A stretch of DNA of 64,000 nt, taken from assembly GCA_019244185.1 (NCBI GenBank), contig JAFATB010000022.1, forward strand, positions 389,586-453,585, read 5' to 3'. The stretch is from Acidobacteriota bacterium. Lineage in GTDB: Bacteria > Acidobacteriota > Thermoanaerobaculia > Gp7-AA8. Below, in pieces: positions 3,994 through 56,100 of this stretch (position 1 is its first letter; each line of letters opens with the position of its first letter). Below the pieces are notes generated by a model. It worked only from the letters and a program-made list of their open reading frames with translations. It made no database searches and had not been told where the DNA came from. The position numbers and the translations under genes are program-made.

Positions 3994-5238
3994 GTGAATA
4001 ATGGCGCGCGCATGAACATCGAGGCCATTCGAGCTGCCTTTCCCGCGCTGCAGCGCGTCCACAACGGCCAGCCGGTCGCGTACTTCGACGCGCCCGGCGG
4101 AACGCAGGTGCCGCGCGCGGTCGCCGAGGCGATGACGGACTATCTCTTTCATCACAACGCGAACACGCACTGGTCGTATCCGACGAGCGCGGAGACCGAC
4201 GCGATCATCGCGAACGCGCGCGCGGCGATGGCGGACCTGCTGAACGCGCGGCCGGACGAGATCGCGTTCGGCGCGAACATGACCACGCTTACGTTTCACC
4301 TCGCGCGGGCGCTGGGGCGGACGTGGGACGACGGGGACGAGGTCATCGTCACCGAGCTCGATCATCACGCGAACGTCGCGCCGTGGCGCGCGCTGTCGAT
4401 CGACCGCGGGATCGTGGTGAAGATGGCGCGGCTGATTCCGGAGACGATGCAGCTCGACTACGAGCATCTCGCCTCGCTGGTGACGGAGCGGACGAAGCTC
4501 ATCGCGGCCGGCGGCGCGTCGAACGCGATCGGCACGATCAACGACCTGCAGCGCATCGCGAAGCTGGCGCGCGATGCGAACGCGCTCTTCTTCGTCGATG
4601 CCGTGCACTTGACGCCGCACGAGCTCGTCGATGTCGAGGCCATCGGCTGCGATTTTCTGGCGTGCTCGTCGTACAAGTTCTACGGTCCGCACGCGGGGAT
4701 TCTCTTCGGACGTTTCGGCTTGCTCGACGTGCTGCCGTTCCCGAAGCTCGCGCCCGCGCCGGACCGCGCGCCGGAGCGCGTCGAGACGGGGACGCAGAAT
4801 CACGAGGGGATCGCGGGGATCGCGGCGACGGTCGACTTTCTCGCGTCGCTTGGTGGTGACGGCGGGGACAATGCCTGTACAAGGCGCGAGCGGCTGACGC
4901 GCGCGTACGCGTCGCTGCACGAGAGCGGCCTGCGGCTGACGCGGATGTTGTGGGATGCGCTGACGTCGATGAAGCACGTGCGCGTGTTCGGTCCGCCGCC
5001 GACGCAGCCGCGCACGCCGACGCTGTCGTTCACGATCGAAGGCGCCGACTGCCACGACGTCGCGCGGGTGCTCGCAGAACGTGCGCTCTTCGCGAGCAGC
5101 GGCGACTTTTACGCGACGACGGTCTGCGAGCGGCTGGCGCTCGAGTCGCTCGTGCGCGTCGGCTGCGGCTGCTACACGACGGCGGACGAAGTGCAGCGGC
5201 TCATCGACGCGGTCGAACGGCTCCGGATCTTGCAGTAG
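3994..5238 (+). CDS. Class V aminotransferase-fold PLP enzyme, cysteine desulfurase / selenocysteine lyase-like
   Basis: SSYKFYGPHAGILFGR PLP-lysine region, HHNANTHW..., overall SufS/CsdA-like architecture; alternative start ATG 4012. Confidence 0.8.
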   Translation: MNNGARMNIEAIRAAFPALQRVHNGQPVAYFDAPGGTQVPRAVAEAMTDYLFHHNANTHWSYPTSAETDAIIANARAAMADLLNARPDEIAFGANMTTLTFHLARALGRTWDDGDEVIVTELDHHANVAPWRALSIDRGIVVKMARLIPETMQLDYEHLASLVTERTKLIAAGGASNAIGTINDLQRIAKLARDANALFFVDAVHLTPHELVDVEAIGCDFLACSSYKFYGPHAGILFGRFGLLDVLPFPKLAPAPDRAPERVETGTQNHEGIAGIAATVDFLASLGGDGGDNACTRRERLTRAYASLHESGLRLTRMLWDALTSMKHVRVFGPPPTQPRTPTLSFTIEGADCHDVARVLAERALFASSGDFYATTVCERLALESLVRVGCGCYTTADEVQRLIDAVERLRILQ

Positions 5239-5250
5239 GATGCGTCTCGT

Positions 5251-5883
5251 ATGGCGAAGCGACCCACGAACGAGCCCGAGCCGCAGTCATCCCGCACGAG
5301 TCTGATCATCCTCTCCGCCGGCGCGATCGTCGTCATGGCCATCGTCGGCTGGGCGCTGACGCGCAGCGTGACGCCGTCGGTGCCCGATGCGCCGACGCTG
5401 ACGGGCACGACGGTCGATTCGTCGACGTCCGTCGCGACGACGGCGCCCTCATCCACCGCGACGTCACCGACCGGCACGCTGCCGCCGCTCACCACGGCCG
5501 CGAACACGCCGACGGCGGACGAGCGGGTCATGGATACCGAGGAAGATAAGCGGAACGTGCCGCGCATCGCGGTCGAGGATCTGATTGGCAAAGTCAAACG
5601 CGGCGAGGTGACGGTGATCGACGTGCGCGATGAGGCGTCGTTCTTCCGCGGGCACATTCCGGGCGCGCTGCACATTCCGCTCGCCAGCGTCGAGAGCCAG
5701 CTCGCGGCCATTCCGCGCGGGAAGCCGATCGTCACGTACTGTACGTGACCCAACGAAGAATCGAGCGCCGGTGCGGCGCTCATCCTGCAGCACAACGGCG
5801 TCCAGAACGTTTCCGCGCTGGCCGGCGGCTTCCACGCCTGGCAGAACATGGGGCAGACGGTGGCCACCGGAACGGCGCAGTAA
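5251..5883 (+). CDS. Membrane-anchored single-domain rhodanese sulfurtransferase interrupted by in-frame TGA at 5746-5748 (candidate selenocysteine, or nonsense/pseudogene)
   Basis: N-terminal TM helix, Thr/Ser/Pro-rich linker, rhodanese fold (VIDVRDEASFFRGHIPGALHIP...PIVTYCT-TGA-PNEESSAGAALILQHNGVQNVSALAGGFHAWQNMGQ); the 44 codons after TGA are in frame and supply the conserved C-terminal GGxxAW helix of rhodanese; ORF track stops at 5748. Confidence 0.55.
5763..5781 (+). promoter_or_regulatory. GC-rich hairpin GAGCGCC-GGUGC-GGCGCUC 14 nt downstream of the in-frame UGA; candidate bacterial SECIS-like element
   Basis: perfect 7-8 bp stem, apical loop GGUGC with G at first positions, UGA-to-loop distance ~24 nt (within range reported for bacterial SECIS). 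Confidence 0.3.
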
Positions 5884-5901
5884 TCGCAGCGCAGTGGCGG
5901 C

Positions 5902-6309
5902 GTGTTTACGCTCGTTCCGCACATCGCTGACGTTCGCGTGCTCTTGCGCGCGGCGACGCTGGAAGCGCTCTTCGCCGACGCCGTCTTCGGCATGTACGCG
6001 GTGATGCGCGACGAGGAGACGACCAGCAACACGTCGCCGGTGACGCGCACGATCGCCGTCGACGACTCCGCCGATACGACCGCGCTCCTCGTCGATTTCC
6101 TCAATGAAGTCCTGCACCGCGCGCACGTCGCGCGCGAGCGCTTCACGCATGTCGCGTTCACGCGCTTCGAGGAGCGCTCGCTCACCGCGGAGCTCACCGG
6201 CATCGCACCCGCATCGTTCGAAGAGGACGTGAAGGCGGTGACGTATCACGAGGCCGACGTGCGCCGCGACGGCGACGACTGGACGACGATGCTCGTGTTC
6301 GACCTATGA
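5902..6309 (+). CDS. Archease (RtcB activator)
   Basis: GTG start; VFTLVPHIADVRVL...YHEADVRRDGDDWTTMLVFDL matches archease family; stop overlaps rtcB start (ATGA). Confidence 0.8.
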   Translation: MFTLVPHIADVRVLLRAATLEALFADAVFGMYAVMRDEETTSNTSPVTRTIAVDDSADTTALLVDFLNEVLHRAHVARERFTHVAFTRFEERSLTAELTGIAPASFEEDVKAVTYHEADVRRDGDDWTTMLVFDL

Positions 6310-7691
6310 AGAAATCGGATTTCGAAAAGCTCGACGAGTTCCTGTGGGAGATCCCGCAGACCCACCGCGGCGACATGCGCGTGCCGGCGCGCGTCTACGC
6401 GACCGAGGAGATGCTCGACTCGATCGTGCGCGACCGGTCGCTCGAGCAGCTGGTCAACGTGGCCACGCTGCCGGGCATTCAGAAGTACGCCATCGCGATG
6501 CCGGACGTGCACGAGGGCTACGGCTTTCCGATCGGCGGCGTGGCCGCGGTCGATGCGCGCGACGGCGTCGTGTCGCCCGGCGGCATCGGCTACGACATCA
6601 ACTGCGGCGTGCGCCTGCTGCGCGCGTCGACGTCGTTCTCCGAAGTCGAGCCGCGCCTCGGGAAGCTCGCGCATTCGATCGCGCGCGAGGTGCCGTCCGG
6701 CGTCGGCCGCGGCGGCGCGCTGAAACTCAACGCGACCGACTTCGAGCTCGTGCTGCGCGACGGCGCGTCGCGCGCGATCGAGATGGGCTACGGCACTGCC
6801 GATGACGTCGCGCACATCGAGTCGAACGGGAAACTCGACGGCGCGGAGCCGCATCTCGTCTCCGGCGCGGCGCGCGAGCGCGGACACGACCAGCTCGGCA
6901 CCATCGGCTCCGGCAACCATTTCGTCGAGATCGATCGCGTCGACACCGTCTACGACGCCGACGAAGCGTCGCGCCTCGGCATCGCTTTCAACTCCCTCGT
7001 CGTGCAGATCCACACCGGTTCCCGCGGGCTCGGCCACCAGGTCGCCACCGACTCGCTGCGCGTCATGACCAAGGTGATGGCGCAGTACGGCATCGAGGTC
7101 GCGGATCGCGAGCTCGCCTGCGCGCCGCTGTCGTCGAGGGAAGGGCAGAAGTACCTCGCCGCGATGGCCGCCGCCGCGAACTTCGCGTTCGCGAATCGGC
7201 AGGTGATCACCGCCGGCATCCGCCGCGCGTGGCAGCGCGAGTTTCCCGACGACCCGGTCGCAATCGTCTACGACGTCGCGCACAACGTCGCGAAGGTCGA
7301 GCGCTACGGCGACGCGGACGTCGTCGTGCACCGCAAGGGCGCCACGCGCGCGTTTCCGGGACAGCCGGTGCTGATCCCCGGCAGCATGGGCACGGCGTCG
7401 TACCTGCTCGTCGGGCAGGACGCGTCGATGACGCAGACGTTCGGCTCGAGCTGCCACGGGGCGGGACGGATGATGTCGCGCACGCGCGCGCGAAACGAGA
7501 TCAACGCCGAAGAGCTGCGCGGGCGGTTGCGCAAGCTCGGCATCGTCGCCGAGGCGGGATCGTCGAAGGGGCTCGTTGAAGAAGCACCGGAGGCGTACAA
7601 GGACATCGACGCGGTGGTCGATGTCGTCGCGCGCGCGGGCATCGCGAAGAAAGTCGCGCGCTTCGTGCCGATTGCGGTGATCAAGGGCTGA
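6306..7691 (+). CDS. rtcB: RNA 3'-phosphate/5'-OH ligase RtcB
   Basis: 461 aa, motifs PDVHEGYGFPIGGV, GSGNHFVEI, SCHGAGR typical of RtcB. Confidence 0.9.
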   Translation: MKKSDFEKLDEFLWEIPQTHRGDMRVPARVYATEEMLDSIVRDRSLEQLVNVATLPGIQKYAIAMPDVHEGYGFPIGGVAAVDARDGVVSPGGIGYDINCGVRLLRASTSFSEVEPRLGKLAHSIAREVPSGVGRGGALKLNATDFELVLRDGASRAIEMGYGTADDVAHIESNGKLDGAEPHLVSGAARERGHDQLGTIGSGNHFVEIDRVDTVYDADEASRLGIAFNSLVVQIHTGSRGLGHQVATDSLRVMTKVMAQYGIEVADRELACAPLSSREGQKYLAAMAAAANFAFANRQVITAGIRRAWQREFPDDPVAIVYDVAHNVAKVERYGDADVVVHRKGATRAFPGQPVLIPGSMGTASYLLVGQDASMTQTFGSSCHGAGRMMSRTRARNEINAEELRGRLRKLGIVAEAGSSKGLVEEAPEAYKDIDAVVDVVARAGIAKKVARFVPIAVIKG

Positions 7692-53107: not shown

Positions 53108-56100
53108 TCAGGGCTGAATGGGCTCGTAGTCCGGCAGCAGCACGACGTTCTGCTTGCGCACCGCGTCGCGGAACTGCGCGACGTCGGACGCGTACAGCTG
53201 GTTCAGATCGGCGAGCACGCTGCGCAGCAGCAGCTCCGCGTTCGCGAGATACGTCAGCTGCGCGGGCGTCGGCGCGTCCCACGACGACTGCATGGCGTTG
53301 ATCGGATAGCCGATGCGGGACAGCACGTCGTTCTCGGCGACGAGGCCTTTCGTCTTCGGCGGCGTCCAGAGGCGGCGTTCGATGGCGTCGAGCTTCGCCT
53401 TCAGTTCCGTGGCCTGCTTCGTCAGCGGATCGGGCGGCGCGTTCGTCGCGGCGGCGTCGCGGTCGTCGTCCTTCTTCAGCTTCGCCGTGATCGCATCGAG
53501 ATCGGCGCGCGTCTTCTGGATGCGCTCGACCGCGGCGGTCGCGGTTTCCTGCAGCGCGCCAGCGCGCACGATCGCGTCGTACTTTGCCTGCCGCACCGAC
53601 TGCGCGATCGTCTCGCGCGGATCGGCGACGACGGTCACCTGCTGCTTCGCCTCGTTGCCGCGGAAGCGGATCGTGACGGTGTAGACGCCCGGCACGACTT
53701 CCGGACCTCCGCGCCGGCGGAACGATTCTTCTTCGCCCTCGCCGCGCTTCGGCTGCTTGAAGGCGTCGCGCGTGAGATCCCACGACGCGCGGTTCACGCC
53801 GAGGATCGCGGGACCTTTGAACTTGCGAATGACCTTGCCGGCGGCGTCGGCGACTTCGATGTCGACTTGCGGCGGCTTGTCGTCGCCGGCGCGTGTCGCC
53901 TGCGTTTGGCCTTGCGGCTTCTGCGCTTCCTTCTGTTCCTGCTTCGCCTTCTGCGCCTCCGGCTCCTTCGGCACGTCGCTCACGACCTGCGGCACGCCTT
54001 CGTCGGTCACGATCGCCTGCCGCGCGGCGTCGCGTTCCTTCTCCTTGCGCTCGCGTTCGCGTTCTTCCGTCGGATGCGGGATGCCGGCGACGTTGAGCGA
54101 GTAGGTGAGGAGCGCGCCGTACGGCTCGTTCTCGCCGCGGAATTCGGAGTCGCCGACGAAGCGCGAGCCTTCCTTCTGCCGCACGGTGTACTGCTGCGCG
54201 TCGGGCACGCTGAAGAAGTGCAGCGGCTCGGCGAGCACGGCTTTCGACATCGTGCGCAGCGGGCGGATGTCGTCGAGGATGTACGCGGCGCGCCCGTGCG
54301 TGGCGATGGCGAGATCGTGATCGCGCGGATGGATCTTCAGTCCCTGCACGGACACCGTCGGGAAGCCGTGCTTCCACTTCGACCACGACTTGCCGCCGTC
54401 GAGGCTCGTCCAGAGACCGAACTCCGTGCCGAGGAAGAGGAGATCGGCGTCGACCGGATCCTGTTCGATCGAGAGCGCGTAGCCCCAGAGGTCTTTCGTC
54501 GCCAGCGACGTCCACGTCTTGCCGTAGTCGTTCGTGCGGAAGACGTACGGCGTCCAGTTCGAGCGGCGGTGATCGTCGAGGACGATGAACGCGGTGCCGG
54601 CGTCGTACGTCGAGGCCTTGATCTCCGGCACCCACGTGTTCGCGGGAACGCCTTTGAGATTCGCCTCGACGCTCGTCCAGTGCGCGCCGCCGTCGCGCGT
54701 CACCTGCACGCGGCCGTCGTCGGTGCCGGCCCAGACGACGTTGCGGTCGACGGGACTCGGCGCGAGCGCGATGATCGTCGTGAAGTTCTCCGCGCCGCTC
54801 GCGTCGAGCGTGAGGCCGCCGCTCTTGTCCTGCTGCTGCCACTCCTTGCGATTCGTCGTGAGATCGGGGCTGATCGTCTTCCACGTCTCGCCGCGATCGC
54901 TCGAGTGATGCACGTACTGGCTGCCGAAGTAGACGCCGTTCGGATCGAACGGATCGACGGCGATGGCGGCGTTCCAGTTGAAGCGGATGGGCGTGTTCGG
55001 ATCGAGTGGCGCGGGGCGGATGTCCTTCCGCTCGCCGGTGCGCAGGTTCCAGCGGACGATGTGCCCTTCCTGGCTCATCGCGTAGCCGACCATCGGATCG
55101 GTGGGAATCGGCGCGGTGCCGAAGCCGTCGCCGAACCCGATCTCCTGCCAGTCCCAGTTGCGCACGCCGGCGGTCTCCCACGTCGTGTTCGGCCCTTTCC
55201 ACGAGCCGTTGTCCTGCATGCCGCCGTAGATGTTGTACGGCATCTCGTTGTCGACGGCGATGTGGTAGTACTGGCCGAGCGGCAGCGACGCGACGAAGCG
55301 CCAGCTCGTGCCACGGTCGCGCGATTCCGAGACGCCGCCGTCGTTGCCTTCGAGGATGTGGCCGCCGTCGTTCGGATCGATCCACATCGCGTGATGGTCG
55401 GGATGCACTTTCGAGTACGGCACGAGCGTCTTGAACGTGCGCCCGCCGTCGTTCGACACGCTGATCACCGAGTAGATGTTGTAGACGCGATTCGCGTCCT
55501 GCGGATCGACGCGGAGAAACGTGTAGTAGAACGGGCGATTGGCGATGTCGGTCTCCGTGTTGACCGCGGTCCATTTGCGACCGCCATCGTCGGAGCGCAG
55601 CAGCGCGCTCTTGTCGGCTTCGACGAGCGCGTAGACGATGCTCGGGTTCGAGCGCGCGATGGCGACGCCGATGCGCCCCAGCACACCTTTCGGCATGCCG
55701 TCGTCTTCGGTATAGCGCTTCCACGTTTCGCCGCCGTCGTACGAGACGTAGAGTCCCGAGCCGGGGCCGCCGGAGTTGAAGTACCACGGCCAGCGCCGGT
55801 ACTCCCACATCGACGCGAAGAGCTTGTTCGGATTCGACGGATCGATGACCAGATCGGCGGCGCCGGTGCGGTCGTTCACGAAGAGCACTTTGCGCCAGCT
55901 CTTGCCGCCGTCGACGGTCTTGAAGACGCCGCGGTCGGCGTTCGGCGACCACTCCTGGCCGAGCGCGGCGACCCAGGCGACGTTTGGATCGCGCGGATGC
56001 ACGACGATGCGCGGAATGCGCTCGGTCTTGTCGAGGCCGAGGTGCTGCCAGGTCTTGCCGCCGTCGAGCGTCCGGTAGACGCCGTTGCCGACGGAGACGG

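Follow-up and report, generated by a model that had tools for sequence, protein, structure and literature searches.

A predicted membrane-tethered rhodanese selenoprotein with a Cys-x-Sec motif, conserved in Acidobacteriota and Chloroflexota

Introduction

Rhodanese-type selenoproteins have been catalogued since 2005. In that year, Zhang and Gladyshev reportedly predicted a CxU rhodanese selenoprotein of putative function using bSECISearch. Five forms are distinguished in a 2026 review (PMC13188914). Form 3 carries the CxU motif and is represented by the model NF041203, forms 1, 2, and 4 carry UxxS or UxxG (PF00581, COG0607, COG2897), and form 5, TsoB, carries UxxxxU (NF045694). Form 3 is also catalogued as "COG0607 form 2, CxU", with TKB26178.1 as an example member. 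In forms 1, 2, and 4, selenocysteine (Sec) presumably replaces the catalytic Cys.

Here we describe a rhodanese gene at positions 5251–5883 (forward strand) of a 64-kb stretch of acidobacterial DNA, hereafter the window. The gene contains an in-frame TGA within its active-site loop. The original prediction read it as a selenoprotein with a C-x-U motif, and a conserved TGA, Sec/Cys pairing among homologues, and a conserved hairpin now support that reading. The motif itself was thought unusual, which no longer holds, as a CxU rhodanese is already catalogued with NF041203. We read the gene product as a divergent, membrane-tethered, and unannotated relative of that catalogued Cys-x-Sec family. Taken as a whole, the data are very probably best explained by a single 210-residue selenoprotein, in which a tethered rhodanese would use UGA-encoded Sec as part of a Cys/Sec redox or relay pair.

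Results

The gene begins with ATG at position 5251. Its start codon is backed by an N-terminus (MAK..(E)PxxSS) kept in three orthologues (L002, L005, and L084), and an AGGA lies 10 nt upstream. The first open reading frame (5251–5748) halts at TGA 5746–5748, codon 166, one residue past the segment GKPIVTYCT. The Cys of this segment is Cys164 (TGT, 5740–5742). Public annotation is cut at the same point, leaving a 165-residue protein (P0002). Past the TGA, the frame continues for 44 codons, PNEESSAGAALILQHNGVQNVSALAGGFHAWQNMGQTVATGTAQ, to a TAA at 5881–5883, giving 210 codons including Sec166 and then the stop. The continuation finishes a single rhodanese homology domain. PF00581 matched residues 109–199 of the read-through protein (5575–5847) with 68.3 bits against a cutoff of 22.2, and the match crosses the TGA. 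A product truncated at this codon would therefore be without the end of the active-site loop, the last helix, and the last strand. Coordinates, frame, and Pfam match together confirm the proposal from which we started, that the frame ends at TGA and that its 44-codon continuation completes the domain.

A GC3 scan of the whole window covered 345 candidate in-frame TGAs. Only the one at 5746 had a strong coding signal on both sides without being a gene–gene boundary. Four other candidates for a second selenoprotein gene, taken from the same read-through scan, were ordinary boundaries between adjacent genes. Elsewhere in the window TGA serves as an ordinary stop (e.g. at the end of the lysyl-tRNA synthetase gene), so recoding at 5746 must be site-specific.

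The TGA is not confined to one assembly. P0002, deposited under "MAG: Acidobacteria bacterium", is recorded from nine contigs. The four that were fetched derive from separate assemblies and sequencing runs, and all are identical to the window over 633 of 633 nt, TGA included. We searched GTDB genomes and JGI metagenomes for orthologues at the DNA level and found TGA at the same codon in 36 further sequences (13 GTDB species-representative genomes and 23 metagenome contigs), or 37 with the window. Their hosts belong to two phyla, comprising Thermoanaerobaculia, Terriglobales, and other Acidobacteriota as well as Chloroflexia/Chloroflexota. Beyond the TGA, all but one early-ending contig retain 39–46 conserved in-frame codons of the pattern P-x-E-x-S-S-A...GG[FL]xAW followed by a real stop, and codon 3-periodicity continues downstream of the TGA in the orthologue alignment. 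Orthologues that end at this codon and carry a separate downstream gene had been named as a finding that would speak against Sec. None were found; what follows the TGA in frame is conserved and finishes the domain.

Protein databases mirrored this pattern. Searching with the domain (U replaced by C) gave, among the best 120 clusters, 63 diverse proteins that stop exactly at ...YC[TA] and are 59–100% identical to the window domain. About 55 others in this set are full-length and read VTYC[TS]-C-P[AN]EESSG.... With a short Terriglobales-form query, approximately 65 of the best 120 matches end in ...YCT and 37 read CTCP. More than 120 database protein clusters end at ...YCT. In full-length homologues the TGA column holds Cys, encoded by TGC or TGT, within YC[TS]-C-P. 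For example, a thermoanaerobaculial orthologue (L003) has TGC at this codon and the same gene order as the window (lysyl-tRNA synthetase, desulfurase, rhodanese). Judged by sequence and synteny, the two genes are a textbook Sec/Cys orthologue pair. The orthologue comparison called for at the outset thus returned TGA in 36 further sequences and otherwise Cys. Some JGI proteins have Trp at this position and were considered as sense-codon orthologues. Two were checked, and both have TGA in their DNA; they are therefore read-through mistranslations.

Immediately downstream of the TGA lies a hairpin resembling a bacterial SECIS (bSECIS) element. It occupies positions 5763–5781 (forward strand), beginning 14 nt past the TGA, and can be written GAGCGCCG-GUG-CGGCGCUC. 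An 8-bp stem, with a core of 5765–5769 paired to 5775–5779, closes the apical loop GUG (5771–5773). The UGA-to-loop spacing is 22 nt and the folding energy is −15.5 kcal/mol. Published bSECIS criteria describe an apical loop of 3–9 nt on an upper stem of 4–16 bp, a G within the first two loop positions followed by G or U, a UGA-to-loop distance of 16–37 nt, and a minimum free energy of −7.5 kcal/mol or lower (PMC13188914, Fig. 2A). The window hairpin agrees with all four, and 34 of 35 orthologues fall within the energy limit. However, in this sequence of 67% G+C the hairpin is not thermodynamically unusual, with z = −0.12 against shuffles of a 71-nt stretch. Its significance consequently comes from comparative data only. 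Of what was first claimed for the hairpin, its presence, spacing, and bSECIS fit stand, while the use of shape and spacing as proof in themselves does not. Rfam returned no match around the TGA even at E up to 10, and it holds no family for this hairpin.

Comparative evidence was drawn from a gapless alignment of 35 distinct 60-nt contexts (A2). The hairpin folds in all 35. Its five core pairs are paired in approximately 99% of cells, and the full 8-pair helix in 83%, compared with at most 48% when the 3′ partners were slid by 1–3 columns. Compensatory changes were observed at 26:40 (G-C to C-G, in L010) and at 27:39 (C-G to U-A, in L136). The loop-closing pair 31:35 is A-U (n = 14), G-C (n = 9), or a C-C mismatch (n = 12). 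Within the loop, all sequences have G32 and 33 of 35 have U33.

Selection on the RNA was also visible in codon usage. Mean entropy at third codon positions is 0.14 bit within the core hairpin versus 1.53 bit outside it. The hairpin codons (Ser AGC, Ala GCC, xGU, xxG, and Ala GCG) are degenerate, and the U runs against the G+C bias of the genome. As these third positions are nearly frozen despite the degeneracy, the constraint acts on the RNA beyond the protein alone. Following Ser-Ser, every Sec form has Ala, whereas most of the Cys forms closest to the window have Gly. Gly-Ala (GGU GCG) covaries with Ser-Leu (AGU UUG), preserving the closing pair. This covariation of Ala-Gly-Ala with Ala-Ser-Leu clearly illustrates how a SECIS element can constrain the residues that it encodes. 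At the hairpin position, G+C-rich self-complementary sequence is also present in two close Cys forms (L003 and L091).

To place the Sec residue within the rhodanese fold, we relied on profile alignment and on a structural stand-in. Aligned by hhalign to E. coli GlpE, the family profile sets Cys164 on the catalytic Cys65, and Sec/Cys-Pro becomes a 2-residue loop insertion. Cys164 is invariant in A1, A3, and A4. By contrast, phmmer, aligning without gaps to PDB 6mxv, places the Sec column rather than Cys164 on the canonical catalytic Cys. Weighing the two alignments, Cys164 is likely the catalytic position and Sec166-Pro167 the insertion. The hhalign result bears out the early placement of Sec two residues past the conserved Cys. 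The resulting loop, C164-T-U166-P-N-E-E-S, is enlarged and acidic (Glu-Glu). It departs from the 6-residue type of GlpE and PspE by the 2-residue insertion and two Glu. In the AlphaFold2 model of the Cys homologue P0010 (pLDDT 89.9), which stands in for the window protein, the strand ends at Tyr, the loop reads C-T-C-P-N-E, and the helix starts from the second Glu. Classical sulfurtransferase active-site loops are neutral or basic. The acidic loop thus argues against thiosulfate as the substrate.

The remainder of the protein has the features of a membrane tether. Residues 18–36 (LIILSAGAIVVMAIVGWAL, 5302–5358) form a predicted N-terminal transmembrane or signal-anchor helix with a mean Kyte-Doolittle value of 2.56 over 19 residues. 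Three Lys/Arg residues precede the helix and one follows it, which suggests an N-in orientation with the rhodanese domain outside. Under the positive-inside rule, a periplasmic location of the domain is probable. Residues 38–98 (5362–5544) are a low-complexity linker composed of 66% Ser, Thr, Pro, and Ala. The product thus has a membrane anchor (residues 18–36), a Thr/Pro-rich tether of about 60 residues, and one rhodanese domain. The P0010 model has the same layout, with a helix at 4–32, a linker of low pLDDT, and a confident rhodanese domain. Its top PDB matches by Foldseek are the single-domain rhodaneses 3nhv, 3tp9, 3gk5, and YgaP (probability 1.00, rmsd 1.5–1.8 Å).

Targeting differs among relatives. 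Orthologues from Thermoanaerobaculia and Chloroflexota keep the N-terminal helix, three Sec forms (L105, L108, and L117) replace it with cleavable-looking signal peptides, and the Terriglobales forms have no targeting sequence. The clade therefore has both exported and cytosolic versions. For the version in the window, tethering to the outer side of the membrane is the most likely arrangement.

Gene context was less informative. A cysteine desulfurase-like PLP enzyme (TIGR01976, am_tr_V_VC1184; 435.6 bits against an NCBIfam cutoff of 352) is encoded at 3994–5238 on the same strand and ends 12 nt upstream of the rhodanese start codon. Archease and RtcB genes lie downstream, also on the same strand. 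The desulfurase adjoins the rhodanese gene only in the closest relatives (L002, L003, and L005), and a search across the clade loci for a conserved operon partner found no widely shared neighbour family. The desulfurase is a possible operon partner, with shallow synteny. As adjacency is limited to three relatives and no neighbour is widespread, context gives no firm clue to function or substrate. A sulfur relay from desulfurase to rhodanese was considered as the main functional argument and set aside, given the shallow synteny and the pairing of a cytoplasmic desulfurase with a domain predicted to face outward.

We also looked for Sec-decoding components. No tRNA-Sec was found in the 64-kb window by ARAGORN or Rfam, or in 14 orthologue loci by ARAGORN. 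Similarly, tblastn with E. coli SelA, SelB, and SelD found no selA, selB, or selD in the window or the fetched loci. One SelB match, in L075, belongs to a genome without the TGA and was taken as another translational GTPase. An 87-nt "tRNA-Glu(CUC)" called by ARAGORN was considered as an unusual or suppressor tRNA and was rejected, having no Rfam support. Acidobacteria and Chloroflexi are both recorded as phyla with selenoproteins (PMC1794560), and from these phylum-level records a selenoprotein trait in this genome is plausible.

Finally, the protein was compared with curated families. Of the NCBIfam models, NF041203 (rhodanese_LYCAU, "rhodanese-related (seleno)protein") scores best for the window protein and for every subgroup tested. 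With U replaced by C, the window protein scores 72.1 bits, and subgroups of the clade score 71.3–96.5 bits. As all lie below the cutoff of 115, the clade is not recognised as a member of NF041203. The TsoB model scores 22.6 bits against a cutoff of 805, and GlpE, PspE, and related NCBIfam models all fall below their own cutoffs on the window protein. None of the database entries of the clade that we examined carries a selenoprotein annotation.

Discussion

Comparative sequence data indicate that the in-frame TGA is almost certainly a real Sec codon served by its own conserved RNA hairpin, in a gene that is not broken. In the mechanism that we propose, UGA 5746–5748 would be recoded as Sec. The hairpin at 5763–5781, with its apical G-U 22–23 nt past the UGA, would be the binding site of a SelB-type elongation factor loaded with Sec-tRNA(Sec). 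After Sec insertion, decoding would run on to the TAA at 5881.

Three other accounts of the TGA can be set against this mechanism. One is that the gene is a pseudogene, or that an otherwise intact Cys- or Trp-encoding gene has recently acquired a nonsense mutation or been misread in sequencing or assembly. TGA is one base from TGC, TGT, and TGG, and Trp does appear here in some JGI proteins. However, the checked Trp proteins have TGA in their DNA, four independent assemblies are identical, 36 diverged sequences share the TGA with intact downstream frames, and synonymous sites of the hairpin are constrained. This explanation, which the original prediction had kept as its alternative, is effectively refuted. 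Another account grants that the codon is genuine and holds that termination dominates, so that the cell would usually make a membrane-anchored fragment of 165 residues, with read-through at a low level or only under certain conditions (e.g. selenium-dependent). All gene callers stop at this UGA. Bacterial Sec insertion competes with release factor 2, and this competition, together with a decoding machinery that is presumed, lends the account some weight. Yet the fragment would stop within the active-site loop. Lacking both the GGFxAW strand and the helix at the C-terminus, it cannot fold as a rhodanese. In 34 of 35 sequences a C follows the UGA, and UGA-C is a weak termination context. Protein conservation and 3-periodicity of the 44 downstream codons across phyla further indicate that selection sees the full-length product. 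We therefore regard dominant termination as quite improbable.

It is also conceivable that the UGA is recoded at this site to a residue other than Sec. A selC*-type tRNA-Cys(UCA) acting with a SelB paralogue could insert Cys, or an acidobacterial allo-tRNA could insert Ser or Ala. The tRNA-Cys(UCA) of selC*, together with selB*, has been described as a possible opal suppressor, and allo-tRNAs in Acidobacteria may serve as nonsense suppressors (PMC5389517). A SelB-like factor would explain the conserved SECIS-like hairpin equally well, and Sec machinery was not found in the window or the fetched loci. On the other hand, selC* is known from Firmicutes, Thermodesulfobacteria, Nitrospirae, and Proteobacteria, but not from Acidobacteria or Chloroflexi (PMC5389517). 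A universal Sec system accounts better than a lineage-specific suppressor for a TGA and hairpin shared by two phyla. Moreover, relatives in which Cys suffices simply have TGC or TGT. Recoding to a residue other than Sec consequently appears very improbable, and Sec remains the residue that we assign to codon 166.

With Sec at this position, the Cys/Sec pair would serve as a centre for redox or chalcogen-relay chemistry, in which the selenolate, as the more nucleophilic partner, may take up sulfane sulfur or another electrophile. The adjacent thiol would then resolve the adduct to give an intramolecular selenenylsulfide, followed by re-reduction. A Cys/Sec selenenylsulfide pair of this kind is suggested by the chemistry of other CxU, CxxU, and UxxC selenoproteins. 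The net reaction might be sulfur or selenium transfer, or one of a thiol-oxidoreductase type, rather than classical thiosulfate:cyanide sulfurtransfer.

More tentatively, and with slightly less than even confidence, we suggest that the TYC[TA]-U-P-x-E clade may constitute a distinct, unrecognised family. Its members would be abundant in soil Acidobacteriota and Chloroflexota, where public annotation cuts them short as a rule, would be mostly exported or tethered, and would use the enlarged, acidic Cys-x-Sec loop for non-classical chemistry, such as periplasmic handling of selenium, metalloids, or persulfides via a selenenylsulfide. If this is true, the clade deserves its own curated model apart from NF041203.

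The gene matters mostly for what annotation has missed. This gene and well over 100 relatives from soil MAGs are deposited as truncated "rhodanese-like" proteins of 69–165 residues, and some JGI entries place Trp at the UGA. The clade also escapes the existing curated (seleno)protein model. As a consequence of truncated annotation, selenium use is undercounted in two dominant soil phyla, Acidobacteriota and Chloroflexota. The clade also offers a natural Sec/Cys series within one fold, with Sec and Cys orthologues in synteny and with forms that are cytosolic, carry a signal peptide, or are anchored in the membrane. No new class of mechanism is opened by this gene.

Comparison with known systems places the locus close to described elements without matching any of them. 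At the RNA level, the window hairpin resembles the E. coli fdhF-type SECIS in lying inside the coding sequence shortly after the UGA and in exposing G-U in a small apical loop approximately 20–25 nt from that codon (consensus in PMC13188914). It shares no sequence similarity with that element. No bulged U is seen, and the stem is short (5–8 bp) and almost purely G-C.

At the protein level, GlpE, PspE, and YgaP share the fold, and their catalytic Cys aligns with Cys164. YgaP is membrane-associated and PspE is periplasmic, although the membrane helices of YgaP are C-terminal. Unlike the window protein, all three have a loop of 6 residues that contains a single Cys and neither Sec nor the C/U-P insertion. 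Rhodanese selenoproteins of forms 1, 2, 4, and 5 likewise combine the rhodanese fold with a Sec at or near the active site. However, their motifs start with U, have no preceding Cys, and in no case read C-x-U. In the window protein, U is followed by P-N-E instead of the xxS or xxG of forms 1, 2, and 4, and by hhalign, though not by the phmmer alignment to 6mxv, the Sec is an added loop residue.

The closest counterpart is form 3. Judging from the model name and the HMM match, NF041203 and the window protein both have a single rhodanese domain with Y-C-x-U at the end of the catalytic strand. The two differ in sequence around the motif, which is TYC[TA]UP[AN]E in the window clade (T-Y-C-T-U in the window itself) compared with LYCAU. 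The window form also has a membrane anchor followed by a long linker, and the hosts are Acidobacteriota and Chloroflexota.

Non-cysteine residues at the selenocysteine column

Among the matches listed, eight JGI protein records carry Trp at the position of Sec166 in the rhodanese family, giving CTWP in place of the C-T-U-P of the gene in the window. At the DNA level, both of the records that were checked have TGA at this codon (L163, 323-832; L164, 6001-6420), and the W is thus the pipeline's read-through of a stop codon. Because the DNA reads TGA in both, these apparent sense-codon homologues are translation artefacts. Other protein records among the matches listed, recovered with the short Terriglobales form as query, show Ser (n = 3), Arg (n = 1) or Gly (n = 1) at the Sec/Cys column; the codons TCA, CGA and GGA each lie one base from TGA. 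These residues may reflect genuine substitutions, errors or additional mistranslated stops.

Coding constraint at the SECIS-like hairpin

The closing pair of the bSECIS-like hairpin imposes amino acid covariation, seen in columns 31-36 of the ungapped alignment of 35 contexts around the TGA (window 5770-5775). In this region the Thermoanaerobaculia encode Ala-Gly-Ala (GCC GGU GCG) and the Terriglobales Ala-Ser-Leu (GCC AGU UUG). The residue following Ser-Ser is Ala in all Sec forms and Gly in most Thermoanaerobaculia-type Cys forms.

Two close Cys-form orthologues (L003, 3330-3390; L091, 5193-5250) retain G+C-rich self-complementary sequence at the position of the SECIS of the Sec forms, GCGGC-CAC-GCCGC in L003, and the G-U loop is not present in either. 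This sequence may be a fossil SECIS left by a Sec-to-Cys change, or it may have arisen by chance within Ser-Ser-Gly-x-Ala-Ala codons.

Genomic context

In the window, the Sec-rhodanese gene belongs to a tight set of four plus-strand genes (3994-7691) encoding, in order, a cysteine desulfurase-like protein (TIGR01976), the Sec-rhodanese, archease and the RNA ligase RtcB. The desulfurase-like and rhodanese genes are 12 nt apart, 18 nt separate the rhodanese gene from that for archease, and the archease and RtcB genes overlap by 4 nt. Upstream, a lysyl-tRNA synthetase gene diverges on the minus strand. Elsewhere in the window, ARAGORN predicted an 87-nt tRNA-Glu(CUC) at 53300-53386 (+). The call is probably a false positive rather than an unusual long-arm tRNA: the segment resembles G+C-rich coding sequence, and Rfam gave no tRNA match there even with the E-value limit raised to 10.

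Orthologue loci were inspected at L001 (4431-4850), at the equivalent positions of L004 and L012, and in the flanks of L006, L007, L087 and L164. An ArsR/SmtB-type regulator lies immediately upstream in some and an OsmC-like gene in L001. In others, molybdopterin oxidoreductase, Rieske and cytochrome c genes are found a few kb away. None of these genes is a clade-wide neighbour across the orthologue loci.

Relation to haloarchaeal rhodaneses

A related loop, VVC-A-C-P-x-G-[QE]-SS, encoded with TGT, occurs in haloarchaeal rhodaneses from Halorubrum, Haloquadratum and marine contigs (L033, L062, L134, L138 and L162, around 5187-6187). Its presence there indicates that the Cys-x-Cys-Pro insertion long predates the Sec forms and is far more widespread.
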